DNA from: an uncultured Candidatus Saccharibacteria bacterium
GTDB lineage: Bacteria > Patescibacteriota > UBA1384 > DTJR01
Direction of reading: 5' to 3'
DNA length: 64,000 nucleotides
Assembly: GCA_964473025.1 (NCBI GenBank)
Contig: CAYYMZ010000001.1
Coordinates: forward strand, 24,163-88,162
Shown: piece after piece, positions 6,391 to 57,321 of the stretch
Position numbering within the stretch: position 1 is the first letter of the stretch
How the letters are laid out: each line of letters opens with the position of its first letter
The notes under the pieces: model-generated
What the model was told of the DNA's origin: nothing
What the model saw: only the letters and a program-made list of their open reading frames with translations
Database searches by the model: none
Position numbers and translations under genes: made by a program

Positions 6391-8675
6391 AAATATTAAT
6401 TGTAGCTTTCTCGGAGAGTATTCATGTTACCCGTTGGATTAATCAGCTGGAAGGCAGCAAAATCAAAGTTTATCTTTTTCCGAGTGTTGACAACGGAGTG
6501 ACTAATAAAGAGCTAAAAGACGCAACCGTTTTTCATTCATTCTACGGGAATCTGTCTTATCGAAATAAAAATGTAAAAACCAAAGGCATTCCAGTTTTAA
6601 GCCACTTGATTGGAATTGTGCTGAGGATGATTTTAAAAAAAATCAGACCTAATTATCACCAGGAGCGCCTGCGCCGGGTTATTAAAAAGATCAGGCCGGA
6701 TATTATTCATTCGATGGAGATTCAACATTCGTCTTATCTGGTTAGCGAGATTAAAAATAACTGGAAAGGAAATTTTCCGAAATGGATTGTAACTAACTGG
6801 GGAAGCGACATCTATCTTTACGGACAGCTTCCAGAACATCGAGAGAAAATAAAAAAGGTGCTAAGCTCTTGCGATTACTATTCATGTGAATGTCAAAGAG
6901 ATATTTTGCTCGGCAAAAAACACGGATTTTCAAAAGCCACTCTGCCAGTTTTTCCAAATTCTGGCGGGTTTAATTTGAAGAGATTAAAAAAAATTCGCGA
7001 AAAAATACCGCCCTCAAAGAGAAGGACGATTATCGTAAAGGGTTATCAAGGTTGGGCTGGAAGGGCCCAAGTGGCTCTACATGCGCTTGATTGTTGCGGA
7101 AAGCTGATAGATGGTTACCGCCTTGTAGTTTATTCTATCCAGCCTGATACGGGCGTTGGAATTGCCGCAGAACTTTTAGCTCAAAAATATAACTTGAGAC
7201 TAGTCCTTGTACCACTCCATACATCCCATGAGCAGATCCTAAAATATATGTCTCAAGCGCGGATCTCGATTGGTGTAAGTATTTCCGATGCAATTTCGAC
7301 AATGGTTTTAGAAGCGATGGTTATGGGATCCTTCCCGATCCAATCCAACACCTCCTGCGCTAATGAGTGGATCAAATCTGGCAAAACAGGTATGATTGTT
7401 CCGCCGGAGGATCCGGAGGTAATCGAGCGAGCAATAAGAAATGCTCTCACAAATGACAAGCTTGTCGACCGCGCCGCGCTCTTGAATTGGAAGGTGGCCG
7501 AGAAACAACTGGATCACAAATTAATAAAAAAGAAAATTATAAGGTTTTATAATGAGGTAACAAATATGAAAACAAATAAAACGTTTGTAACAGGAATTTT
7601 TGGTAGTGGCAAAACAACCTTTGTCAAGAAGTATGCCAAGGAGAACAAGATTAAACTTATTTCCTTTGATTGGAGCTTTAATTATCGCATAAAAGGAAAT
7701 CAATCACGCCGAATTTTACAAAATCTGCCGGAGCGTTTTGTGATGGACGCAATTCCAATCGACGAACAGGGTAGTTGGGATGATTTTATTGAGTATGAGA
7801 AAAAACGCGACGACGTTTCGGTCGTCTGTATTTATTGTCCCTCGATGAGCGTTTGGTTGAGAAGGGTTGGCAAGAGGCGGTCTATTATAAGGGTTGGCAA
7901 GAGAGCGGTCTATTATAAGGATTTTATGGGCGCCTTAAAATACTCGGCTAAAAAAACTCTGAGAAAGAGAATTATTCCTATTAACATTGAAGAGTTAAAT
8001 AAAGATTACCGCAGTTTTTTCACCGGCACTTTGACATCATTAAAAAAGTTCAAATCTGTCCGATATTATGACTCCTGCGCCAATGAATATACTACCCTTG
8101 GGGAGATGCTAAAGAGAATCAAAATTGACACCTTCCCATTCCAGGACTATCTCCAGAGTCGGCCCGAAGGTTATGACAAATACTATCAGGATATCGAAAT
8201 AATCAATTTCAAGGGATATTCAGAATCCTACAAAACATGGAATATTATCAAGGATTTAGTTAACTGGAAGGGAAAGGATGTAGTTGATTTAGGTTGCTTT
8301 CAAGGTTATTTTTCGTTTAAAGCCGAAGATGCCGGGGCTAACGTTATCGGCCTGGAAAAAAGCGAAACGGTTTTGAAAACAGCTAGATGGATAAATAAAT
8401 TAAGGGGTGGAAAGGTAAAATTAAGACAATGGGAGGGCGGAGAACTTATTCCGAAATGCGACATCGTTTTGTGTCTTAACGTCCTTCATCATTTTCCCGA
8501 CCCTGATAAGGTTATTGAGATGATGAATTGTAAAAAAATGATCTTCGAGATTAACAAAAAAGATCGGCCGATAGTTGAAAGACACTTGAAAGTTATAAAA
8601 ACCGTCCGGTCCCAAAGGGTAAAAAGGACGATTCTATTATGCGAGGCCAAGAAAGATCTTAAGAAATCTGCCTAA
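6387..8675 (+). CDS. three-domain fusion protein: N-terminal GT4-like glycosyltransferase, central P-loop NTPase/kinase-like domain, C-terminal class I SAM methyltransferase
   Basis: GT-B motif SISDAISTMVLEAMVMG; Walker A GIFGSGKTT at ~aa 405; MTase motif VVDLGCFQGYF..VLCLNVLHHF at C-terminus; 762 aa. Confidence 0.65.
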   Translation: MKILIVAFSESIHVTRWINQLEGSKIKVYLFPSVDNGVTNKELKDATVFHSFYGNLSYRNKNVKTKGIPVLSHLIGIVLRMILKKIRPNYHQERLRRVIKKIRPDIIHSMEIQHSSYLVSEIKNNWKGNFPKWIVTNWGSDIYLYGQLPEHREKIKKVLSSCDYYSCECQRDILLGKKHGFSKATLPVFPNSGGFNLKRLKKIREKIPPSKRRTIIVKGYQGWAGRAQVALHALDCCGKLIDGYRLVVYSIQPDTGVGIAAELLAQKYNLRLVLVPLHTSHEQILKYMSQARISIGVSISDAISTMVLEAMVMGSFPIQSNTSCANEWIKSGKTGMIVPPEDPEVIERAIRNALTNDKLVDRAALLNWKVAEKQLDHKLIKKKIIRFYNEVTNMKTNKTFVTGIFGSGKTTFVKKYAKENKIKLISFDWSFNYRIKGNQSRRILQNLPERFVMDAIPIDEQGSWDDFIEYEKKRDDVSVVCIYCPSMSVWLRRVGKRRSIIRVGKRAVYYKDFMGALKYSAKKTLRKRIIPINIEELNKDYRSFFTGTLTSLKKFKSVRYYDSCANEYTTLGEMLKRIKIDTFPFQDYLQSRPEGYDKYYQDIEIINFKGYSESYKTWNIIKDLVNWKGKDVVDLGCFQGYFSFKAEDAGANVIGLEKSETVLKTARWINKLRGGKVKLRQWEGGELIPKCDIVLCLNVLHHFPDPDKVIEMMNCKKMIFEINKKDRPIVERHLKVIKTVRSQRVKRTILLCEAKKDLKKSA
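7862..7916 (+). repeat. imperfect tandem duplication (27 nt + 28 nt) inside the fusion-protein CDS
   Basis: gttggcaagaggcggtctattataagg / gttggcaagagagcggtctattataagg; extra nt in copy 2 makes the two copies read in different frames (VGKRRSIIR vs VGKRAVYYK) yet ORF stays open. Confidence 0.85.
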
Positions 8676-8736
8676 TCAGCTGGGTTGACTCTAAAGTATT
8701 ATCTGATAGTTTATAAAAAAATAGCAGAGGTGAAAT

Positions 8737-9687
8737 ATGAAAGTATTAGTTGTTGGTGGAGCGGGATATTTGGGCGGTGCAGTCACGGACCTTTTGGCCC
8801 AAACCGATCATAAATTCAGGGTCTACGATGCCCTTTTGTACGAAGATGCATATTTAAAAAAAGTTGACTTTGTTTATGGTGATATCCGCGACAGAAAAAA
8901 ACTTTTAACTAATCTAAGATGGGCCGACGTGGTCGTGTTTTTAGCGGCACTAGTCGGAGATGGCGCCTGTGCCATCAATCCCGATATCTCGACAGAGTTA
9001 AACCACCTTGCCGTTGCTTGGTTGGCTGAAAATTTTGATGGCAGAATTATTTTTATGTCAACCTGCTCGGTTTATGGGGCGCAAGATGAGATTTTAAACG
9101 AAAAATCACCGATTAATCCATTGTCAGTTTATGCTGTGACTAAATTTGCCGCTGAAGTTCACCTTAAGAACAAAGATGCCATTATTTTCCGCCTCGGAAC
9201 ACTTTTTGGTGTCTCGGATGAATTTTCTAGGATTCGACTTGACTTAGTTGTAAATACGATGACCGCAAAAGCATATTCTGAAGGAGAGCTTAAAGTTTTT
9301 GGCGGTACGCAATACAGGCCGCTACTGCACGTCAAAGATGCGGCTCAGGCGATTGTGGATAATCTTGAAACCAAGCACAAAGGAATCTATAACTTACATA
9401 AAATAAATATCAAAATTTCTGATTTGGCCGAGGAGGTCAAAAAGCAATTCCCCAAAGTAAAAATTGAAAAGGTAAAAATGAAATTCGAAGATTCCAGAAA
9501 TTACCGGGTTTCATCTGATTTGGCCAAAAAAACCTTCGGGTTTAATCCACAATACTCGCCTTCTGATGGGATCAAAGAGCTTAAGAAAATTCTAGAAGAG
9601 GGACGGATTAGAGATCTTAATAGTCCGCGGTATACCAATCAAATGTTTTTAACACAATTTAATACCCATAAGTTGTGCAAGGAGTAA
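8737..9687 (+). CDS. NAD-dependent epimerase/dehydratase (SDR family, sugar-nucleotide modifying)
   Basis: N-terminal VVGGAGYLGG Rossmann motif; YxxxK-type SDR; good SD gaggtg upstream. Confidence 0.75.
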   Translation: MKVLVVGGAGYLGGAVTDLLAQTDHKFRVYDALLYEDAYLKKVDFVYGDIRDRKKLLTNLRWADVVVFLAALVGDGACAINPDISTELNHLAVAWLAENFDGRIIFMSTCSVYGAQDEILNEKSPINPLSVYAVTKFAAEVHLKNKDAIIFRLGTLFGVSDEFSRIRLDLVVNTMTAKAYSEGELKVFGGTQYRPLLHVKDAAQAIVDNLETKHKGIYNLHKINIKISDLAEEVKKQFPKVKIEKVKMKFEDSRNYRVSSDLAKKTFGFNPQYSPSDGIKELKKILEEGRIRDLNSPRYTNQMFLTQFNTHKLCKE

Positions 9688-24699: not shown

Positions 24700-25983
24700 T
24701 CAAGGGCGCAAGCGCTTGACGTCCCTTGGAAACAAAACCGCTTCTTTAACACTATCTAAATTAAGTAAATGTTGAATTAATCTTTCCGATCCTATTGCCC
24801 AACCGCCGTGCGGCGGCATCGCGTATTTAAAGACGTCAAGATAAAACTCCATTCCTTCCGGCTTGACGCCCTTTTTCTTCATATTCTCAAGCAATTTTTT
24901 ATAATCGTGAATTCTCTGCGAACCGGTGACAAGTTCGACACCCCTGAATAAAAGATCAAAACCATAAGTTGCGTCCGCATCATCCGGGTCTGGCATCGTG
25001 TAAAAAGGTCGCTCCTTCCAAGGATAATGGGTTGTAAAAATAAAGTCGGAACCAAATTCTTCCTTGGCATATCTGCAAATTAACCTTTCGCCTTCAGGGT
25101 CAATGTCCGTTCCGGCGGGCACTTCATAACCGTATTTTTCTTTGATGATTTTTTTGGCATCAGCAAGTTTAACGTGAGGAATTTCAGCGGGTACTTCCGG
25201 AACTTTTGCCTCCCACATTTCAAGATAGGGTTTGCCCTTTTCGCCGATCATTTTAAATACTTTAACCAAAACCTTATTTAACATCGCCGTGACCGAGCGG
25301 TAATCTTCGATAAAGCCCATTTCTGCGTCAAGCGAAATATATTCATTAACATGGCGGGTGGTGAAGTGGGGCTCGGCGCGGAAAACAGGGCCAATCTCAA
25401 AAACCCGTTCAAAAACGCCAACCATGATTTGCTTATAAAACTGGGGTGATTGAGCTAGGAAGGCCTCTTTTTCAAAATAATCAATCTTAAAAAAGTTTGC
25501 TCCGCCTTCCGATGCCGCTTCGAGAATTTTCGGAGTTTTAATCTCGGTAAATCCTTCATCGCGCATCACTGTTTCGTAGGACTCAAGCAAAATGTCGTAG
25601 AGTTTAAAAATTGCCTGAACCTTCGAGTGACGAAGCGAGATTGTACGCAGATCTAAAAGTGTTGCAAGCTGGAGTTTCAGTTGCGGATTGGCGATATCAA
25701 ACGGCAGATCTTCGAGGTTTGCGGAGACAACCTTCAAGCTTTTTCCCTGAATCTCAAATCCGCCCTTGGCACGCTTTTCTTCTTTAACCAATCCTTCGAC
25801 TTCAACCGCATCACCTGTTTTAGCGCCTGGATCCTTCTCAAAAACACATTGGATTGTGCCAGAATAATCCTGCAAGACGATGAATGTTACGTTGCCTAAA
25901 GCACGGACGTTTTGTACACGGCCTTGTAGCGTTACTTCTTTGCCAGAGCTTTCCTTCAGATCCTTAACTAATGTTCTTTCCAT
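24700..25983 (-). CDS. aspS: aspartate--tRNA ligase, archaeal/eukaryal-type class IIb (Asp/Asn-tRNA synthetase family)
   Basis: 427 aa; class II motif 3 GGWAIGSERLIQHLLNLDSVKEAVLFPRDVKRLRP; N-terminal OB anticodon-binding domain. Confidence 0.8.
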   Translation of the reverse strand: MERTLVKDLKESSGKEVTLQGRVQNVRALGNVTFIVLQDYSGTIQCVFEKDPGAKTGDAVEVEGLVKEEKRAKGGFEIQGKSLKVVSANLEDLPFDIANPQLKLQLATLLDLRTISLRHSKVQAIFKLYDILLESYETVMRDEGFTEIKTPKILEAASEGGANFFKIDYFEKEAFLAQSPQFYKQIMVGVFERVFEIGPVFRAEPHFTTRHVNEYISLDAEMGFIEDYRSVTAMLNKVLVKVFKMIGEKGKPYLEMWEAKVPEVPAEIPHVKLADAKKIIKEKYGYEVPAGTDIDPEGERLICRYAKEEFGSDFIFTTHYPWKERPFYTMPDPDDADATYGFDLLFRGVELVTGSQRIHDYKKLLENMKKKGVKPEGMEFYLDVFKYAMPPHGGWAIGSERLIQHLLNLDSVKEAVLFPRDVKRLRP

Positions 25984-26049
25984 AATTTTAAAATTATTTG
26001 ACTTAAGTCAAATTGTATCTCATTTAGAGTAAATCGCAAGGTAAATTTA

Positions 26050-26700
26050 CTACTTAATCAGAAAACTTAGACCTTTGACGGCGAAGTAAATCCCGAAAAC
26101 CATAAATAGAACGAAAATTATGAAATCGCCATAATTAGCCAGGAAGCGGTTAATTTTTGCCAAGATGCGGTCCGCTAATTTTGGAATAATTGTCACGATA
26201 AAAATGGGCAAAGTAACCGGCAGGGTAAAGAAAAAAACGTTGATGATCAGAAAAATAAGTTTGCCCCAACTTCCAAACCCCGATGCGCCCACTTCTTTAG
26301 CGGAAGCGAAAATCAGGAAAAACGAATCGTTGGCAATGCTTATCAGCACTCCGGCAAAAAACCATTTCAGCAAGCTTCCGCCACGGTTCTTGTGCTCTGT
26401 CTTTGCGGGTTTACTGACAAGCAATTTTTTAAATCCGTAAATTATAAATAAAACACCCAGTACCAAATCGACAACCGAGGTAATAAGAGCGTGTTTGGGG
26501 GTCGTGGCGGGAATGTTGCCAATATAAAATCCGGCGATTGTGATCCCTGTCCCAACCAATAATGCTCCAAGCAGAACAGCCAGGGCGCTTGCTTTCGACC
26601 GATCTTTTTTGCTCAACAGATAAATTACTAGACCAAATAGAACTGGGCTAATCGTCGCTGTCAAATCAAGCGGTATGACCTTAGCTAACGTTGCAAACAT
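26050..26700 (-). CDS. hypothetical 6-TM membrane protein
   Basis: 216 aa, six hydrophobic segments, no diagnostic motif. Confidence 0.45.
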   Translation of the reverse strand: MFATLAKVIPLDLTATISPVLFGLVIYLLSKKDRSKASALAVLLGALLVGTGITIAGFYIGNIPATTPKHALITSVVDLVLGVLFIIYGFKKLLVSKPAKTEHKNRGGSLLKWFFAGVLISIANDSFFLIFASAKEVGASGFGSWGKLIFLIINVFFFTLPVTLPIFIVTIIPKLADRILAKINRFLANYGDFIIFVLFMVFGIYFAVKGLSFLIK

Positions 26701-26766
26701 GAATTCCCCTCTAGTTTAGTTTACCAAAAAAACTGCTAGATGGACTTGAAACTCTTTATTTTTCGA

Positions 26767-27372
26767 TTATTTTATAATTTCAAAATTTTTTCTATCTGCA
26801 ATGACGAATTGCTCGTCAGTTAAAGTTATAACAGGATATCGGGTTGTTTTTCTGCCTTCCTCGACAGTCTCTTTGAACTCATCCGTATAATGGCAGACGA
26901 CGATAAAATTAACCAAATTCAATGCTGATAAATCTTTAAGGTGGACGGAGTTTCTATCGGCATGCTTCCAGCCAGCCGCTTCGATGGTGGGGCAGGCGAG
27001 ATAGCTTCCCGCACTTGAACCGATATAGGCCGTTCCGGCTTTGACCATTTCTCTAGCAACTTTGTCGAATCCGCTCTTTTTCGCTTCGTTTAACAGGTGA
27101 AAAGTATTTCCCCCAGCTACAAACAAAACATCAAAATCCGCGAGTGATTCTCTGGTTCGCTCTTCGGTTTTGTTTTTTAGGTCAAAATCCTCAACTTTGA
27201 ATCCCAAATCAACCAGCATTTTCCGGTCCGCGTCCATCCACGGCTTATTATCGCCATACGGATCGCCCGCCGTTGGAATAAATGCAAGTTTCAACTCTTT
27301 CGGCGGTTTCGGCAACATCTTCGCGATTTTGCCCATAACTCTTGATGCTTGTGATGTCAAAAATACCTTCAT
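26767..27372 (-). CDS. pepE: peptidase S51 family (dipeptidase E-like)
   Basis: VLFVAGGNTFHLL and YIGSSAGS motifs characteristic of S51/PepE. Confidence 0.65.
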   Translation of the reverse strand: MKVFLTSQASRVMGKIAKMLPKPPKELKLAFIPTAGDPYGDNKPWMDADRKMLVDLGFKVEDFDLKNKTEERTRESLADFDVLFVAGGNTFHLLNEAKKSGFDKVAREMVKAGTAYIGSSAGSYLACPTIEAAGWKHADRNSVHLKDLSALNLVNFIVVCHYTDEFKETVEEGRKTTRYPVITLTDEQFVIADRKNFEIIK

Positions 27373-28079
27373 TTTTTCCCCGTTGTTATTTTTCGCGTAG
27401 TTTCTCTGTAGGCAATTTTCGGCAATGAATCCTGATTTTTTTCAAGAAACGCTAGCGTTTCTTTTCCATTTTTGACAGCCAGCGATCGCAAAATCCAGGA
27501 AATCGCTTTGGTGATCAAAACATCTTTCTCGCCTTTGAGCTTCTCGATCGTTTCGTAAGCTAATTTTCGAAGTTTCGGGTCGCCCGAACCTCTTACCGAT
27601 TTGCACTGCAAAACTAAACTGGCACGTCTAATCTGGATATTCTTATCTTTGGCAAATTTATTGATTGTTTTTTCCCATTCCTTCCATCGGAAGAGAACTT
27701 CTTTTTCACTAAATAACGACTGGCAAATGCAGTCGCACTCCGCCCAGCCGTTGGTCGTCCTTAACCATTTTTTTAAATGCCCAAAATCGAGCGATCGGCG
27801 CACCTCGGGAAGCTTGGTCAGCATTTTCCCCGCAAAATTAAAATCTTCAAACGTGTCACTAGAAAAAAGATCATCCAAAACTCCTACCTGCTGCTCTGGT
27901 GAAAGTACTTTCATTTGCCCCAAATACTCACGGATAACTTTATCGCGCTGAGCGGAATAGATATTCAGCAATTTTCTTTTTGTGCCCAAATACCTCCCAA
28001 CAAAATCAAGTTCTTTCTGCGAACATTTTTTTCTCGCAGATTTCAATGATTTTCTAATTTTCTCGGCAATATTGTTCAC
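27369..28079 (-). CDS. HEAT-repeat DNA alkylation repair-like protein (AlkC/AlkD family)
   Basis: 236 aa all-helical, weak similarity pattern to DNA_alkylation family; low certainty. Confidence 0.4.
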   Translation of the reverse strand: MNNIAEKIRKSLKSARKKCSQKELDFVGRYLGTKRKLLNIYSAQRDKVIREYLGQMKVLSPEQQVGVLDDLFSSDTFEDFNFAGKMLTKLPEVRRSLDFGHLKKWLRTTNGWAECDCICQSLFSEKEVLFRWKEWEKTINKFAKDKNIQIRRASLVLQCKSVRGSGDPKLRKLAYETIEKLKGEKDVLITKAISWILRSLAVKNGKETLAFLEKNQDSLPKIAYRETTRKITTGKK

Positions 28080-28507
28080 TTGCTAGATATTTTTTTGGCA
28101 TATTTTTGAAGGAAATCCACCAATCCGGCAATAACAGCATCTCGCAGGTCAGGATCGCTTGACGCTACCCAAACAGCCAGATTGTAGAGCTTCTGCGGGG
28201 GAATATCCATCCAGTGTCCGTTTAACATCAGAAACACCAGCAATGTTGTAACGGCTATCCGTTTGTTTCCGTTTTGGAATGGATGGTTTTTGATTAACAG
28301 ATAAAATAATATTGCTGACTTATTGGCGAGTGTCGGATAGAGATCTTTTCTGCCGTAGGTCTGAAAAGGAGTGGCAAGGCAGCTTTCCAAAACGCGCGGA
28401 AACCTCGTCCTAAAAGCCGGAATCGGTTCGTCCCAGCTCATCGTTGCAACAGCGAGTTGATGGGCGATTTTTTCAATATGGTTTAATCCGATTCTTTTGG
28501 TGTGCAT
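28076..28507 (-). CDS. doc: Doc/Fic-family toxin (death-on-curing type II TA toxin)
   Basis: Fic motif HPFQNGNKRIA (HxFx[DN]GNKR); 143 aa; overlaps upstream antitoxin gene by 1 nt. Confidence 0.8.
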   Translation of the reverse strand: MHTKRIGLNHIEKIAHQLAVATMSWDEPIPAFRTRFPRVLESCLATPFQTYGRKDLYPTLANKSAILFYLLIKNHPFQNGNKRIAVTTLLVFLMLNGHWMDIPPQKLYNLAVWVASSDPDLRDAVIAGLVDFLQKYAKKISSK

Positions 28508-28761
28508 TATTCCGCTCCGAGTTTTTTAATCACATCACCGTATTGGCGGACAATTTTTTTAACCGCTTTTTCTATTTCTTTTTGGTCCTTAGCAGTCATT
28601 TCCCCCATGATTGAGTCAACATATTCCTTGGGAATCAAATATTCATGCCCAACTCTTTGATGGGGAATCAGGTTCGCCTTGACCTGGCGAAACACTTGCA
28701 TTCTACTTAGACCGATTTTTTTTGCCAGTTCTGGAATTGTGACAAATTCTTTTTGTATCAT
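28507..28761 (-). CDS. HTH (excisionase/MerR-like) antitoxin partner of Doc
   Basis: 84 aa; N-terminal HTH TIPELAKKIGLSRMQVFRQV; operon with doc; palindromes upstream. Confidence 0.65.
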   Translation of the reverse strand: MIQKEFVTIPELAKKIGLSRMQVFRQVKANLIPHQRVGHEYLIPKEYVDSIMGEMTAKDQKEIEKAVKKIVRQYGDVIKKLGAE

Positions 28762-28774
28762 GATGCTAATACTA

Positions 28775-28813
28775 TGCTACATATGTAACATAATGTCAAT
28801 GGTATGTTACATC
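28775..28813 (-). promoter_or_regulatory. palindromic operator/promoter region of the doc TA operon
   Basis: perfect palindrome TACATATGTA plus inverted half-sites ATGTAACAT / ATGTTACAT within AT-rich region just upstream of antitoxin start. Confidence 0.45.
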
Positions 28814-28912
28814 TATTTTAAAATATACTCCCAGACCGGCTTGCTAATAGATATTTTGAACAAAATAAGCGATCTTAACTGACATAAAAACCCGATATTT
28901 CTGTTTTAAATC

Positions 28913-29188
28913 CTAGCTAACCTTCAGAACTTTGCCATCAAACGCCACTTCCACAGCTTGGCCATTCTCGAGCTCCAAGGCATCTCGCAGGGCTTTCGTC
29001 ATACCGATAAACTTATCGCTTCTACCCTTGATTAAATTGGCAGCGCTTTTGTTAACCTTGATTTTGCCTCCGCTTACTTTTAGTGCCTTCTGATTTTTCG
29101 GGCTGATCGCACACAGCGGATTTTCCTTTACATCCTCATATTTTTTGAGAGTTTCTTTCCTGAACCCTCGAACCTTTAGCTTAATCAT
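28913..29188 (-). CDS. small hypothetical protein with C-terminal AbrB/MazE-like segment
   Basis: 91 aa from internal Met (MIKLKVRG); C-terminus ALELENGQAVEVAFDGKVLKV resembles swapped-hairpin AbrB/MazE domains; track ORF extends over tRNA region and is trimmed. Confidence 0.35.
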   Translation of the reverse strand: MIKLKVRGFRKETLKKYEDVKENPLCAISPKNQKALKVSGGKIKVNKSAANLIKGRSDKFIGMTKALRDALELENGQAVEVAFDGKVLKVS

Positions 29189-29357
29189 ATTGTCTCCTCG
29201 CCATATTATTATTAAAAAATCTGTGGTTGGGATTCGGTCACCTGTTCTTGCCTGCTGGCAAGCCAGTCGACCCCATCTCGCCCAGCCAAGCTGGGCTGCG
29301 GCCTTCGAATCCGTCCACGCCAGTGCCCAGGCATCAAGGCAAGCTTGATGCATGCGC

Positions 29358-29449
<92 letters not shown>

Positions 29450-29555
29450 ACGATTTACAAAAACAACCTGATTTTAAACCTTCTGCGGACCTCCACTTCT
29501 GTAAACTATATCAAAATATGCGGCAACTTCAATAAATAAAACCTTCTAGTACAAT

Positions 29556-30707
29556 ATGGTTATGTCACGAAATCAAATCGCCCTTATTATTTTCTTCTTT
29601 TCACTTTTGGTTTTTATTTTATTTGCCCAGAAAACTTATCAGTATATGAGCTATTTCGTGCCTTTGGCTGATGCGATTTTGCACGGACGCATCGATGTTA
29701 GCCAAACAGGAGCGATGAATGAACTTGTGCCTTACGCCGGTAAATGGTTTGTGGTTTATCCGCCGATGCCGGCCATCGCCGTTTTACCGTTCGTTTTAAT
29801 CTGGGGGATAGGGTTTAACCAAGTAATTGCCTCGGTTGTATTTGCCGCTGCCGCCGTTGCCCTATTTTTTATCCTCACCACTAAATTCACCAAAAAATTA
29901 TGGGTTAGCTTGGCACTAACGGCGCTTTTGGCGTTTGGCACGAACTTTTTTTACACTTCGCTGATCGGCTCCTCTTGGTATATTGCCCATATTTTAGCGG
30001 TTTTCTTTTTAATTTGCGCCCTCCTTATGTCAATTAACAAAAAGCCGTTTTTGGGGGGTTTATTTTTATCTTTTGCTTTCCTGTCGCGCCTGCCAACAGC
30101 TCTGGCTTTCCCGATTCTGCTCTATTTTTTGCTTTCGAAGAGCAAAACCCGCTTCAAAATACTCTTTTGGTTCGCTCTGCCGATCGTCTCTGCTATAATT
30201 ATATTTGCACTATATAACGCACTGCGCTTCGGATCGATAACCCAGACCGGCTATTCGCTAATACTAGGGGTTTTACAAGAGCCGTGGTATCAAGAGGGGA
30301 TTTTTAATCTAAACTACATTCCGCGCCAACTGAATGCTCTGTTTTTGGTTTTACCTAAAATCACCAATAGCTTCCCTTACTTCCTACCATCTAGTGTTGG
30401 TATGGCATTATGGATAACAACGCCCGCTTTGTTGTTGCTGTTTTTGATTAAATTTAAAGATAAGGCCGTCGGGTGGTTCTTGCTGACCGCATTGCTCGTG
30501 GCAATTCCCAGTTTGATTCACGGCACGGTCGGATTTACCCAGTTCGGCTATCGTTTTTCTCTTGATTACATCCTGTTTTTACTGATTCCGCTCATTTTTG
30601 TGTTTGAGCGGATAGGCAAGTGGTGGACTTGGATTTTTGTCTCTTTAAGCATCGCTATCAATCTCTGGGTTGTAATTTTATTTTACTTGCACATTTTTTC
30701 AACGTAA
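29556..30707 (+). CDS. polytopic membrane protein (~11 TM), putative GT-C-type glycosyltransferase
   Basis: 383 aa almost entirely hydrophobic helices; no diagnostic motif. Confidence 0.4.
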   Translation: MVMSRNQIALIIFFFSLLVFILFAQKTYQYMSYFVPLADAILHGRIDVSQTGAMNELVPYAGKWFVVYPPMPAIAVLPFVLIWGIGFNQVIASVVFAAAAVALFFILTTKFTKKLWVSLALTALLAFGTNFFYTSLIGSSWYIAHILAVFFLICALLMSINKKPFLGGLFLSFAFLSRLPTALAFPILLYFLLSKSKTRFKILFWFALPIVSAIIIFALYNALRFGSITQTGYSLILGVLQEPWYQEGIFNLNYIPRQLNALFLVLPKITNSFPYFLPSSVGMALWITTPALLLLFLIKFKDKAVGWFLLTALLVAIPSLIHGTVGFTQFGYRFSLDYILFLLIPLIFVFERIGKWWTWIFVSLSIAINLWVVILFYLHIFST

Positions 30708-30747
30708 GATTGAATTTAGGGTGGTTTTAGAGTAGGATTATGGTCTT

Positions 30748-30822
30748 GCTCCCGTAGTTCAACGGATAGAATGTGGGCTTCCGGAGCCTATGATGTGGGT
30801 TCGATTCCCGCCGGGAGTACCA
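30748..30822 (+). tRNA. tRNA-Arg (anticodon CCG)
   Basis: 75 nt cloverleaf: acceptor GCTCCCG/CGGGAGT, anticodon stem TGGGC/GCCTA with loop TTCCGGA, T-arm GTGGG-TTCGATT-CCCGC, CCA encoded. Confidence 0.85.
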
Positions 30823-31023
30823 CTTCGCTAGGCTCAGTGTAAACTTAGAAAAGTGAAGGAAAGAAAGCTTGCTCTGAGGAGCAAAGCGACGATGAGCGCC
30901 CGTAGCTCCCTCCTTCAGACTCACCGTCAAATCTATTTCATAGTATTATGACGGTGTGTCTTACGGCGGGCAGGCAGCTGGATATTGGTCTGCTGACTAA
31001 TTGCCTGGGAGAATTTACAGTAT

Positions 31024-31099
31024 GTGCCTGTAGCTCAGTGGATAGAGCGCTGGTTTGCGGAACCAGAGGTCGGAGGTTCAAATCCTCCCAGGCATACCA
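31024..31099 (+). tRNA. tRNA-Arg (anticodon GCG as read from gene)
   Basis: 76 nt, GTAGCTCAGTGGATAGAGC D-arm, anticodon stem CTGGT/ACCAG loop TTGCGGA, T-arm GGAGG-TTCAAAT-CCTCC, CCA encoded. Confidence 0.85.
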
Positions 31100-31235
31100 T
31101 AAAAGATGTCGGCTGAAGTTTATCCGTCTCTGGCGGAGAGCCGAATCAAACCCTGCCTGCCCCTCGTAGCCAAAGGCGAAGTGGGGTCGGGCGTACCATT
31201 CGACTTGAACCGGCAACTTGTTTTTGTAAAAGAAA

Positions 31236-31268
31236 GGGCCTTACCACGCGTGCGGTAAGGCCCTTTTG
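31236..31268. terminator. bidirectional rho-independent terminator
   Basis: GGGCCTTACC-acgcgtgc-GGTAAGGCCC 10-bp stem followed by TTTTG on plus strand and TTTCTTTT on minus strand. Confidence 0.7.
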
Positions 31269-31289
31269 CTGTCCTGTCACGGTCTGCAC

Positions 31290-31532
31290 CTAGCAGACCG
31301 TCTCGGGGATATTGTCCGTGCCCTCCATGCACGGATCGCCGTCAGCCCTATGGTGCTTGAGCAGTCGCCAACTGAGAGCTTCATCTCCAGTGCAAGTGAG
31401 ATGATCCCCCACCGAGTCGAAGCCGCCGTGGTTTGCGGCTTGCTCGAGCTCCCGATCTTCCGCTCTTCGCAGCGGAAGGTCTGACTGATTGCAGAATCCA
31501 CAGGTTCCCTTCTTGCTTTCCGCTCCGGCCAT
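31290..31532 (-). CDS. small Cys-containing hypothetical protein (80 aa) in GC-rich islet
   Basis: strong SD AAGGAGGG 7 nt upstream of ATG; ends just before bidirectional terminator; GC-rich unlike neighbours. Confidence 0.5.
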   Translation of the reverse strand: MAGAESKKGTCGFCNQSDLPLRRAEDRELEQAANHGGFDSVGDHLTCTGDEALSWRLLKHHRADGDPCMEGTDNIPETVC

Positions 31533-31572
31533 ATTATCACCCTCCTTGGTATTTGGACAAGCGAAACATCAA

Positions 31573-31601
31573 AGCATATCAAAAAATTTTACAATAGTCA
31601 A
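31573..31601 (-). promoter_or_regulatory. sigma70-like promoter for small Cys protein gene
   Basis: minus strand TTGACT-17 nt-TATGCT. Confidence 0.4.
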
Positions 31602-31890
31602 TCGATATTCAGTTCTGCTATAATTAAATCGTACTTTTTTATTTGGTCGCAGATTCAGCAGATCCCGCGCCTATGTCTTTGACCCCTGTTGTAATGGGGA
31701 GGAGGCAAGCCAAGGCAGAGTGGGGCATACCCGGCCGGCTAGTTTCAAAACAAGGAGGGCTTTGCGAAAAGTTCAGTGTTGTTGTTTGTAAAAAAATCGT
31801 AAAAGCAAGAAGACACAATAAAAAAACAAAAAAACAAGACAAGAATCGACCCTTAATTCTTTATTCGATATTCGTTATTCTAAATTCTGC

Positions 31891-32490
31891 CTACTGTGCG
31901 TTCTCTATTTTAACCGAGGTCATTTTGTCGCCGACGGTGAGCTGTTTAGCAATATCCATGCCGGAGGTGACTTGGCCAAATAGGTTATAGGCCTTGGTCA
32001 GTTTGGTGGAATTATCAACGAGGTTAATAAAAAATTGTGAGCCGTTGGTATCGGGACCGGAGTTTGCCATCGCCACGGTGCCCTCGATGTATTCGCCTCG
32101 GACAGTTTCGTCTTTAAAACTATATCCAGGACCGCCGGTACCGTTTCCCTTCGGATCGCCGCCCTGAACAACGAATCCTTCTTCAACGCGGTGGAAAGTT
32201 AAACCGTCATAAAATCCTTTGTTTGCCAGATAAACGAAATTGCTAATTGTCAAAGGTGCCTTGTCGGCGGACAGGGCAATCTCGATTGTTCCTTTTGAGG
32301 TTTGAATAACCGCTTTTTTGTTTTGAATCTGCTCGTCGGCTAATTTACCCGGAAAACTATATTTGCCGGGCGTTGTACTCTCAATCACGTTTCCTCCTCC
32401 ATTAGTGTTTGTATTTTGCTCCGTTGTGCAACCGGTTAAACCGATTAAGGCAACAATAGCGGTTATGAATAAATAATGTGATTTTTTCAC
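31891..32490 (-). CDS. peptidyl-prolyl cis-trans isomerase, cyclophilin type, lipoprotein
   Basis: lipobox LIGLTGC after signal peptide; cyclophilin motifs FHRVEEGFVVQGGDP and GSQFFI; GTG start. Confidence 0.85.
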   Translation of the reverse strand: MKKSHYLFITAIVALIGLTGCTTEQNTNTNGGGNVIESTTPGKYSFPGKLADEQIQNKKAVIQTSKGTIEIALSADKAPLTISNFVYLANKGFYDGLTFHRVEEGFVVQGGDPKGNGTGGPGYSFKDETVRGEYIEGTVAMANSGPDTNGSQFFINLVDNSTKLTKAYNLFGQVTSGMDIAKQLTVGDKMTSVKIENAQ

Positions 32491-56024: not shown

Positions 56025-56387
56025 TCATTTTTTTAGAATTGAAGAGAAGATGAGAAGCAATTCCTGCGATTCTCTCCATAACTTTCGGCATTCTTCTTTC
56101 TGCTTAGGATTTGCATCAGCCATGATTCTTAGCCAATATCTTGTTTCTTTTGCCTCCTTCTTACAGATTGATATTTTATGCTTAAAATCTTTCTTAGAAT
56201 TGCAAGCATCCGCTTCACAGTAGTTTGCTCCTATACTTGAAGAAGCTCTAACGAGCTGCGTGACAAGAGGTTTGTTGATCGAGTTAGCTGGTGTCTTCTT
56301 CAAAAGCCTAATAACATCGAGAGTAAAAGCAGTCGTTCTTTCTTCTAAATCATATTTTGGTTTATGATTTTGAGCTTTATTTGTCAT
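56025..56387 (-). CDS. four-helix-bundle protein (23S rRNA intervening-sequence protein family)
   Basis: LVTQLVRASSSIGANYCEA..KISICKKEAKETRYWL matches family consensus; start at internal Met MTNKAQ. Confidence 0.65.
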   Translation of the reverse strand: MTNKAQNHKPKYDLEERTTAFTLDVIRLLKKTPANSINKPLVTQLVRASSSIGANYCEADACNSKKDFKHKISICKKEAKETRYWLRIMADANPKQKEECRKLWRESQELLLIFSSILKK

Positions 56388-57321
56388 TTGGGCTTTCGGC
56401 TTTATCGTTTGCGGTTCTATTATGGAACCGCTTATGTATCTCGTGCAAATGCTTGTCGGTAACATGGGTATAAACTTGGGTGGTGGTGATCGAAGAGTGG
56501 CCTAATAAACTCTGCACAGAGCGTAAATCCGCTCCGGCGCGCAAAATATCAGTGGCAAATGAATGGCGCAAAACGTGCGGCGTAACTTGTTTGACGATAC
56601 CGGCGCGCCTGGCCGCTTCGGCTACAATGCGCTCGACCTGCCTTGAGGTTAACCGCCCGCCGGATTCAGAGAGTTCATTCGAACCCAAATCCTCGCCGTT
56701 GGGCTTTGAATCTTTAATAAATAACGCCTTGTCTTTGTCGTGGCGCGCTTTGAGATATTTTTCGACCCACTCCTTGGCTTCGTCAGAGAGAAAAACGACA
56801 CGGCGTTTGCCGCCTTTGCCGTCAACCGAAAATTCCTCGTGTCCCAGATTAACCTGATCGCGGTTTAGGCCGGTTAATTCCGAAACGCGTACGCCGGTGG
56901 AAAATAAAATTTCTAAAATCGCGCGGTTTCTAAGTTCCAAAATATTTTTTTCACCATATACATTGCGGATTCGCTCTAACTCTTGCGGTTCCAAAAAAGC
57001 AATTGCGCGCTCGGGAGTATCGGAGAGTTCAATTTTCTCGGGCGCAAGCGATTCAACATCTGTTTTTGATAAATATTTCAAAAAGCTCCGAATCGCAATC
57101 ATATAATAGTTCATCGTTTTGTTTGCAAGGCCTCGCCGGTGCAAGACGAGCCGCCACTTTTTGATGAGTTCAAGGTCTATTTTTTTCACCGAAACTATAC
57201 CCTGACTTTCGGCAAATTCGGCAAATTTACTAAGATATGAATCGTAGTTGCGGATTGTCAGCTGGGAGTGCCCGCGCTCGAGTTCAATATATTCTAAAAA
57301 TTCTCTAATTTGTTTTTCCAC
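56377..57321 (-). CDS. xerC: tyrosine recombinase XerC/XerD
   Basis: C-terminal catalytic HVLRHSFATD..LLGHSSITTTQVYTHV with Tyr; 314 aa. Confidence 0.85.
   Translation of the reverse strand: MEKQIREFLEYIELERGHSQLTIRNYDSYLSKFAEFAESQGIVSVKKIDLELIKKWRLVLHRRGLANKTMNYYMIAIRSFLKYLSKTDVESLAPEKIELSDTPERAIAFLEPQELERIRNVYGEKNILELRNRAILEILFSTGVRVSELTGLNRDQVNLGHEEFSVDGKGGKRRVVFLSDEAKEWVEKYLKARHDKDKALFIKDSKPNGEDLGSNELSESGGRLTSRQVERIVAEAARRAGIVKQVTPHVLRHSFATDILRAGADLRSVQSLLGHSSITTTQVYTHVTDKHLHEIHKRFHNRTANDKAESPNDK

Follow-up and report, generated by a model that had tools for sequence, protein, structure and literature searches.

The segment at positions 31100-31610 of the window (the whole 64,000-nucleotide stretch of DNA that was analyzed, from an uncultured Candidatus Saccharibacteria bacterium) lies directly after a tRNA-Arg(GCG) gene and falls into two parts: what appears to be a decayed, chimeric scar of integration into a tRNA gene (31100-31232), and a separate, intact gene cassette (31233-31610). 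The probability of this interpretation is put at roughly 65%. Such decay at a hotspot of integration is ordinary biology; the unusual part is a tiny, structured insertion family, found at the 3′ ends of tRNA genes, to which the scar was compared. A sequence-only reading of the same DNA had taken the whole segment to be the remnant of one tRNA-targeting integrative element. Footprints of integration were indeed found, but the diagnostic repeat proved to be a different word from the one proposed, the open reading frame (ORF) lies outside the scar and no integrase was present. The scar contains the following features.

31128-31140, minus strand: a 13-mer, read on this strand as CTCTCCGCCA plus GAG, that is, the 3′ end of tRNA-Ser with a 3-nt trailer
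31141-31189, minus strand: a decayed module core, with the motif CGACCCCACTTCGCC kept, hairpin P2 shrunk to GCC/GGC and hairpin P3 gone
31186-31201, plus strand: a displaced, attR-like tRNA 3′ fragment, GTCGGGCGTACCATTC

The 13-mer, CTCTGGCGGAGAG, occurs exactly twice on the plus strand of the window, at 29357-29369 and 31128-31140, and the exact match extends on neither side. The tRNA-Ser(GCU) 3′ end (CTCTCCGCCA) accounts, as its reverse complement, for ten of these bases, and the trailer for the other three. The sharing of this word with tRNA-Ser(GCU), from which the sequence-only reading started, is real, although the two copies had been placed 1 nt and 3 nt away from these positions. It also held up against shuffled controls: when the 520-nt segment was compared with the four window tRNAs (10-nt flanks, either strand), a match of at least 13 nt was reached in nine of 1000 dinucleotide shuffles (P ~ 0.009). 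What did not stand was its interpretation as an att-site duplication. The copy in the segment lies on the 5′ side of tRNA-Ser(GCU), 1.77 kb off, and is inverted relative to the adjacent tRNA-Arg, and it therefore cannot be attR for either gene. Judged by position and orientation, it occupies instead the place of the internal inverted arm, a copy of a tRNA 3′ end, that characterizes the insertion family. A T-loop-like sequence, GAATCAAACC, stands next to it at 31143-31152, and together the two resemble a T-loop, acceptor strand and CCA on the minus strand.

Copies of the family were found by nhmmer or by reading the sequence. Relatives are designated below by L-numbered contigs, and the two alleles of tRNA-Arg(GCG) that were encountered are called GCGCCC-type and GTGCCT-type.

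L012, 7693-7794: copy at tRNA-Arg(CCG), duplicate of 21 nt, period 145 nt
L094, 3138-3243: copy at tRNA-Arg(GCG), GCGCCC-type, duplicate of 21 nt, period 144 nt
L164: copy at tRNA-Arg(GCG), GCGCCC-type, duplicate interrupted by a 36-nt insert
L008, 5688-5747: copy at tRNA-Ser(GCU), duplicate of 19 nt, period 134 nt
Window, 29217-29359 (nhmmer 29226-29333), plus strand: copy at tRNA-Ser(GCU), duplicate decayed, period ~143 nt

The order of elements in the family is as follows. A tRNA ending in CCA is succeeded by a trailer hairpin of 30-40 nt and then by an inverted near-copy of the tRNA end from T-loop to CCA, which is ~3 nt shorter than the end it copies. Next come GAATCGAAAGCCGCAG, hairpin P2, GAGGCGGGGTCG and hairpin P3 with an AGCA loop, and the module closes with GTGACC and a direct repeat of the stretch between the T-loop and the 3′ end of the tRNA. 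The insertions measure 134-145 bp, and intact copies are bounded by a direct duplicate of 19-21 nt; an intact tRNA with its displaced 3′ fragment is seen cleanly in L012 and L094 (21 nt) and in L008 (19 nt). The junction with tRNA sequence always falls in the T-loop, between TTCG and AA, followed by GGTCA(C/T).

The window thus has a copy at tRNA-Ser(GCU) that is better preserved than the one at 31100-31232. Lying just 3′ of the tRNA, it retains a decayed direct duplicate (29225-29236), the GGTCAC end, P3 and P2, and its inverted arm ends in CCA at 29322. Profiles built from relatives only recovered it with nhmmer E values of 1e-6 to 1e-4. A 28-nt palindrome with 79% complementarity (29311-29338 with 29344-29371) links the tRNA-Ser 3′ end and trailer to the inverted arm. 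Across the family, the conserved core stands at tRNAs of three species (Ser-GCU, Arg-CCG and Arg-GCG). The window tRNA-Ser copy and the L164 tRNA-Arg(GCG) copy agree exactly in hairpin P2 and have their two arms fused in the same way, and this sharing at different tRNAs favors a spread of the modules between tRNA species as a mini-element over independent deletions.

The empty site was found at tRNA-Ser(GCU) of L010 (membrane protein 73% identical), which lacks the module. The native 3′ end and flank of this gene, TGTTTTAGTTCCAGAGCGGAGAGGGTGGGATTCG, is followed by the tRNA body, and the displaced copy and flank in L008, TTTTTTAGATTCAGAGCGGAGAGGGTGGGATTCG, is followed by the module; up to the T-loop junction, 31 of 34 positions are the same in both. 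The L008 displaced copy retains the ancestral non-CCA end (GCTC) and the L008 tRNA now ends in GCCA, an end that was evidently supplied by the insert. This clean empty site shows the modules to be site-specific integrations into tRNA genes. The situation at tRNA-Arg(GCG) is different: in L009 no module directly follows this gene, but an element with a serine recombinase is present there, so that it is not a clean empty site.

The displaced fragment at 31186-31201, GTCGGGCGTACCATTC, consists of the 13 terminal nt of the GCGCCC-type tRNA-Arg(GCG) and the 3 nt that flank this gene in L009, and a 16-nt match was reached in none of 1000 shuffles (P < 0.001). The fragment belongs to a tRNA-Arg(GCG) allele other than that of the adjacent gene. 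The same fragment closes the modules of L094 and L164, where P3 separates the core word GGGGTCG from the fragment ...CCTGTCG; at 31186-31201 core and fragment abut at a shared GTCG, and the coincidence of these words would be explained by a microhomology deletion of P3. Within the window, the core-motif pattern occurs only here and at 29268 (expected 0.01). The motif, the inverted arm and the Arg-type repeat stand in the order, orientation and distance from the tRNA expected from the family, and mostly on this combined geometry the copy at 31100-31232 is judged likely to be a member. It appears to be decayed and also chimeric, since its inverted arm matches tRNA-Ser and not tRNA-Arg. The closing helix of intact copies cannot form in it.

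An alternative is that the module, including the copy at 31100-31232, is a functional structured RNA cotranscribed with the tRNA, in which the arm would pair with the tRNA 3′ end or its duplicate and affect processing or stability, the repeats themselves being functional. This alternative has the following in its favor. Paired cells in the module helices amount to 88.7%, compared with 69.6% in shuffles and 34-47% in slid controls, and double-sided changes were seen at 20 of 35 pairs, a number reached in none of 500 shuffles; the comparison is limited to five sequences, whose alignment also supplied the structure under test. The helices are kept by compensatory changes, and the pairing counts in favor of the insertion family as well. 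The inverted arm follows the sequence of the neighboring tRNA in four copies, and 31100-31270 folds better than its shuffles (z = -3.35), with the terminator described below contributing much of this. On the other hand, the modules show presence/absence polymorphism with a clean empty site, and orthologous copies decay (window versus L008), the segment copy having lost P3 as well as its closing helix. No further copies were found in relatives at ~59-61% identity, and the module is absent from the 59%-identity relatives. The Rfam 15 covariance models gave no family match: the gathering threshold was passed by four tRNAs only, and nothing credible was found in 30650-31950 even at E values up to 10. 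We therefore regard a functional RNA as unlikely. ARAGORN detected no transfer-messenger RNA. The possibilities that the module is a decayed tandem tRNA copy, a convergent pseudo-tRNA or a hammerhead-like ribozyme were dismissed by inspection together with the empty Rfam result. A miniature inverted-repeat transposable element was also considered and rejected: arm and direct repeat do pair, but their sequence tracks the neighboring tRNA, and the duplication is 19-21 nt of tRNA.

The remainder of the segment is occupied by the cassette.

31233-31266: terminator hairpin with a 13-bp stem (31233-31245/31254-31266) and an 8-nt loop; T-rich tail TTTCTTTT on the minus strand
31290-31532, minus strand: ORF of 80 amino acids with conserved cysteines C11, C14, C47 and C68
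31540-31547, minus strand: Shine-Dalgarno sequence AAGGAGGG, 7 nt before the ATG
31573-31601, minus strand: promoter TTGACT-17-TATGCT with an extended -10 TG

Every element that the sequence-only reading had listed (13-mer, terminator, ORF, Shine-Dalgarno sequence and promoter) is present at the locus. The perfect inverted repeat of the terminator, the 80-residue ORF with its ribosome-binding site and the promoter spacing were all reproduced, and the promoter was found to have the upstream TG in addition. The hairpin is the terminator of the ORF and possibly also serves the tRNA operon; it is absent from the output of a consensus terminator scan.

The only credible homologue of the ORF in a full HMMER search was P0126, a protein of 84 amino acids encoded on L096, with 39% identity over 77 amino acids (library E = 5.8e-5). 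The two proteins conserve the four cysteines, a GF-SV motif and a PE-V motif, and their DNA is not alignable; the ORF is a real coding gene. The promoter of the L096 homologue has 22 of 27 nt in common with that of the cassette (ATTGACT...TTTTTTGATAT), and the gene has an AAGGAGG site upstream and its own terminator. Base composition sets both genes apart. The GC content at third codon positions (GC3) is 0.654 for the ORF against ~0.48 in neighboring genes, and 0.80 for the homologue against 0.29-0.42 in most of its neighbors, and these outliers in both genomes suggest that the cassette was probably acquired horizontally. A word-indexed homologue search returned only the query itself, a two-sequence profile added no homologues, and four long repetitive proteins were rejected as homologues because their scores were summed from weak repeats. 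No match to the ORF was found in Pfam, NCBIfam, PHROGs, PADLOC or the PDB sequences, and an AlphaFold2 model had a mean predicted local distance difference test (pLDDT) score of 54, too low for a fold search. From the CxxC...C...C pattern one might guess that the protein binds metal. Its family has two members, which share a conserved promoter and are foreign in base composition, and it is a minor lead. A second GC-rich gene (L096, 1226-1669; 147 amino acids; GC 0.61 against 0.33-0.41 elsewhere) lies 0.8 kb from the homologue and has no family match.

In the vicinity of the cassette, a promoter-like site on the plus strand (TAGTCA-18-TATAAT, 10/12, with TG) was noticed within 31595-31800, divergent from the ORF promoter and pointing into a GC-richer patch that converges on the gene for a peptidyl-prolyl isomerase (PPIase). 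A small RNA at 31630-31800 was considered and rejected, as these 171 nt are no more structured than shuffles (z = -0.02).

In the sequence-only reading, the 13-mer was the att core of one element with a tRNA-Ser end, and the terminator, ORF and promoter were the remains of its cargo. In favor of this are the 13-mer itself, which is improbable by chance, the outlying composition of the ORF and the absence of the ORF from this locus in all relatives examined. The placement and inversion of the 13-mer speak against it, as explained above, and sister copies hold at the same place an inverted copy of whichever tRNA adjoins. Moreover, the direct duplicate is the other word, at 31186-31201, between the tRNA and the cassette; the cassette, being to the right of it, lies outside the scar and cannot be tied to it. 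No tRNA-Ser fragment was found to the right of the cassette. The suggested link of the small protein to a tRNA-targeting element was likewise not borne out, because the contig of its sole homologue (L096, 5.3 kb) carries no tRNA. The single-element explanation is held to be very unlikely and is already disfavored by the geometry.

The surroundings of the segment are as follows.

29360-29449, minus strand: tRNA-Ser(GCU)
29556-30707, plus strand: membrane protein of 383 amino acids
30748-30822, plus strand: tRNA-Arg(CCG), from ARAGORN and Rfam (61 bits); blastn synteny with L008/L009 ends here
30823-31023: spacer of 201 nt between the two tRNA-Arg genes
31024-31099, plus strand: resident tRNA-Arg(GCG), GTGCCT-type, from ARAGORN and Rfam
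31100-31610: segment under study
31891-32490, minus strand: cyclophilin-type PPIase

Among named organisms, the membrane protein has its nearest relatives in metagenome-assembled genomes of Berkelbacteria, Woesebacteria and the like, which places the organism among the uncultured bacteria of candidate-phyla-radiation type. In six samples, conspecific contigs contain the segment at 99.9-100% identity. The closest different relative is L008/L009, with a membrane protein 88% identical; by blastn it is colinear with the window from 25838 to 30823, after which colinearity is lost. Its tRNA-Arg(GCG), which begins 8 nt past tRNA-Arg(CCG), has the different, GCGCCC-type sequence and is adjoined by the gene for a 568-residue large serine recombinase (7275-9036), the final codons of which overlap the tRNA 3′ end. 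Proteins with SLFN/AlbA_2 and HNH domains are encoded among the downstream genes of this element. The content after these tRNAs differs again in other relatives, and the tRNA-Arg locus can be described from this comparison as a hypervariable hotspot of recombination and integration. GC content over 31100-31499 is 0.55-0.595 in 200-nt windows, against 0.441 (44%) for the whole window; the rise had been placed at the CCA of tRNA-Arg(GCG), but it begins earlier, at ~30700, with the tRNA cluster.

The spacer upstream of the resident tRNA-Arg(GCG) holds further tRNA-derived words.

30896-30908, plus strand: GCGCCCGTAGCTC, the same 13 nt with which the GCGCCC-type tRNA-Arg(GCG) of L008/L009 begins
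30962-30977 and 31153-31168: inverted repeat of 16 nt with 2 mismatches, its arms on both sides of tRNA-Arg(GCG)
31002-31016: TGCCTGGGAGAATTT, an inverted near-copy (14/15) of the tRNA-Arg(GCG) T-arm/acceptor 3′ strand (31080-31094), ending 7 nt upstream of the tRNA

The match of GCGCCCGTAGCTC begins at tRNA position 0, and a match of at least 13 nt between the 201-nt spacer and any of 10 tRNAs has P = 0.008. For the 16-nt inverted repeat, one of 100 shuffles reached 16 nt (P ~ 0.01). The two pieces of the GCGCCC-type allele (30896-30908 and 31186-31201) have a complete second allele between them. This resident gene shares 94% identity with its counterpart in the distant L012 and 82% with the sister-genome allele. 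The GCGCCC-type is found in L008/L009, L094, L164 and L095 (membrane protein 77-88% identical), that is, in all closer relatives examined that have a tRNA-Arg(GCG), none being on the contig of L010 (73%); the GTGCCT-type is found in the window and in L012 (63% identical). Given the flanking pieces, the resident tRNA-Arg(GCG) most likely came with foreign DNA and replaced the ancestral allele; its foreign origin is judged solely from this distribution among relatives.

Several minor features accompany these pieces. A hairpin at 30908-30970, with 22-nt arms that are 82% complementary and a 19-nt loop, begins at the last base of the GCGCCCGTAGCTC fragment, and the tRNA-Arg spacer as a whole folds better than shuffles (z = -2.7). 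In L164, the 36-nt GC-rich insert (1314-1349; CCTGCCCGC...GCAGGCGGG) splits the displaced tRNA-Arg(GCG) fragment, and nine bases in it match window 30966-30974 in reverse complement, within an arm of the inverted repeat around tRNA-Arg(GCG). In L012, a degenerate copy of the tRNA-Arg(GCG) 3′ end (GGTCAAATCTTGTTGTGTGCCA; 7901-7970) lies ~45 nt after that tRNA and is probably another, older integration scar.

That there is no island at all, the tRNA-like words having arisen by chance in the GC-rich intergenic DNA that separates a tRNA operon from a small gene of the usual lineage-specific kind, would fit the 274 recurring 13-mers of the window and the marginal profile support for the scar copy, but it is highly improbable in view of three exact matches (13, 13 and 16 nt) at the exact ends of tRNA genes, each with P ≤ 0.009, the arrangement of the words in the order and orientation of the relatives' intact copies and the loss of synteny exactly at this locus.

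On the interpretation of the segment as an integration scar plus a separate cassette, the sequence of events may have been the following. An insert would enter the region of a tRNA gene from the T-loop to the 3′ end and bring a new tRNA 3′ end, the original end being shifted downstream as a direct repeat; from this geometry we infer a recombinase-mediated integration into the tRNA gene. The copy in the segment would then have decayed, its inverted arm becoming tRNA-Ser-like and P3 being deleted via microhomology. The ancestral tRNA-Arg(GCG) would have been disrupted and a complete gene with the same anticodon brought by incoming DNA, and later deletions could have left the 16-nt inverted repeat around the new tRNA. 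Several footprints lie at the tRNA-Arg locus, as though elements had accreted there in tandem.

A number of observations weigh against this interpretation. The core-motif pattern was drawn up with both copies already in view, and in a leave-out profile the copy at 31100-31232 was the best non-self match at only E = 0.082, or E = 5.7 with another alignment. A tRNA-Ser-like arm beside a tRNA-Arg implies one more event: gene conversion, for instance, or recombination with the tRNA-Ser copy. The known copies number five or six, all from a few related metagenomic contigs, and none was found with an integrase between the two arms. The pieces of the old tRNA-Arg(GCG) allele are 13 nt each and the 50 nt between them are gone, so that replacement needs further deletions. 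Approached from the PPIase side, no synteny that would fix the right boundary was found in the relatives examined, which differ there.

The source of the recombinase was also considered. There is no integrase in or beside 31100-31610, where the repeat-bounded stretch is ~100-145 bp and the adjacent ORF has no Pfam match, and the window contains no remnant of the serine recombinase of the relatives. A tyrosine recombinase of 314 amino acids with SAM_1 and Phage_integrase domains, of Xer-like size and architecture, is encoded 25 kb away (56377-57321); it was the only tyrosine recombinase among 10 larger ORFs scanned, 17 window ORFs having been searched with Pfam overall. In a phage collection only the tRNA-Arg was matched, and plasmids gave no match. 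Two scans of viral contigs for the module core gave 60 chance matches in the first and none in the second.

The geometry of a displaced 3′ fragment is that by which Islander defines islands in tRNA genes (PMC4383910), and the attB of mycobacteriophage Ms6 lies in a tRNA T-loop (PMC1762012). The modules resemble tRNA-integrated islands and prophages in that the tRNA is regenerated by the insert, a repeat of 19-21 nt is displaced, the crossover lies in the T-loop and an empty site exists. They differ in being 134-145 bp, far too small for a recombinase gene, noncoding and without integrase, in having one core at three tRNA species and in carrying the host tRNA 3′ end a further time as an inverted near-copy; the segment copy is moreover truncated and chimeric. 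A second comparison is with cis-mobilizable elements (CIMEs), decayed integrative elements that keep attL and attR and have lost the genes for integration and transfer (PMC5704250). The intact modules likewise keep both att-type repeats and no recombination genes, and the copy at 31100-31232 keeps a 13-nt attR core only. The modules differ in sharing one arm-to-arm fusion between copies at different tRNAs, and their mobilization is putative. All CIMEs described to our knowledge are far longer than 134-145 bp.

In the tRNA-dependent lysogeny of actinobacteriophages, integration disrupts a host tRNA gene without rebuilding it, and the inserted DNA brings a complete tRNA of the same isotype (PMC10865867). 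The tRNA-Arg locus is similar in that an intact tRNA-Arg(GCG) stands between 13-nt pieces, 5′ and 3′, of a different allele; unlike in that system, no phage or integrase is left, the middle of the old tRNA is missing and the new tRNA is only presumed to have arrived on a mobile element. A working analogy can also be drawn with elements that borrow the Xer recombinase of the host, as some integrative elements do, CTX phage integrating as a folded single-strand hairpin. The modules, too, lack an integrase and carry inverted, foldable att-like copies, and an Xer-like gene is present in the window, but their target is the tRNA T-loop and not dif.

These comparisons permit a bolder and still doubtful proposal. 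The modules might be undescribed, integrase-less mini-elements, consisting of little beyond an att site, that enter tRNA T-loops in candidate-phyla-radiation bacteria and supply a new 3′ end (for tRNA-Ser(GCU), GCTC to an encoded CCA). They could retarget by covariation of the direct core with the inverted copy and depend on recombination in trans, possibly in the form of a folded strand acted on by a host Xer-like recombinase; 31100-31232 would then be a dead copy at a site where such traffic swapped the tRNA-Arg(GCG) allele. If the mini-insertions do move, no smaller tRNA-targeting integrative elements would be known to us; they could show how att sites are retargeted between tRNAs and would offer a route for the exchange of tRNA 3′ ends or whole alleles in candidate-phyla-radiation bacteria. 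In this respect the insertion family at three tRNA species is a more interesting by-product than the scar. In reduced uncultured genomes, short words from tRNA ends that lie close to tRNA genes can be read as successive layers of a history of integration, and an obvious repeat such as the 13-mer can mislead when taken as an island boundary.

Other mobile or variable loci were observed nearby and in relatives. Window 28034-28913, a few hundred bases from the tRNA-Ser scar, replaces a 412-nt segment of the sister genome L008; within this strain-specific indel, a Fic/DOC gene (28076-28507) and an HTH_17 gene (28507-28761) form a toxin-antitoxin-like pair. Among the relatives at 59% identity, an IS110-family transposase (L158, 262-1383) lies ~1.5 kb from tRNA-Ser(GCU), and Cas12a-like fragments with REC1 and Cpf1 domains (L157, 5383-7145) are found near ribosomal protein genes.

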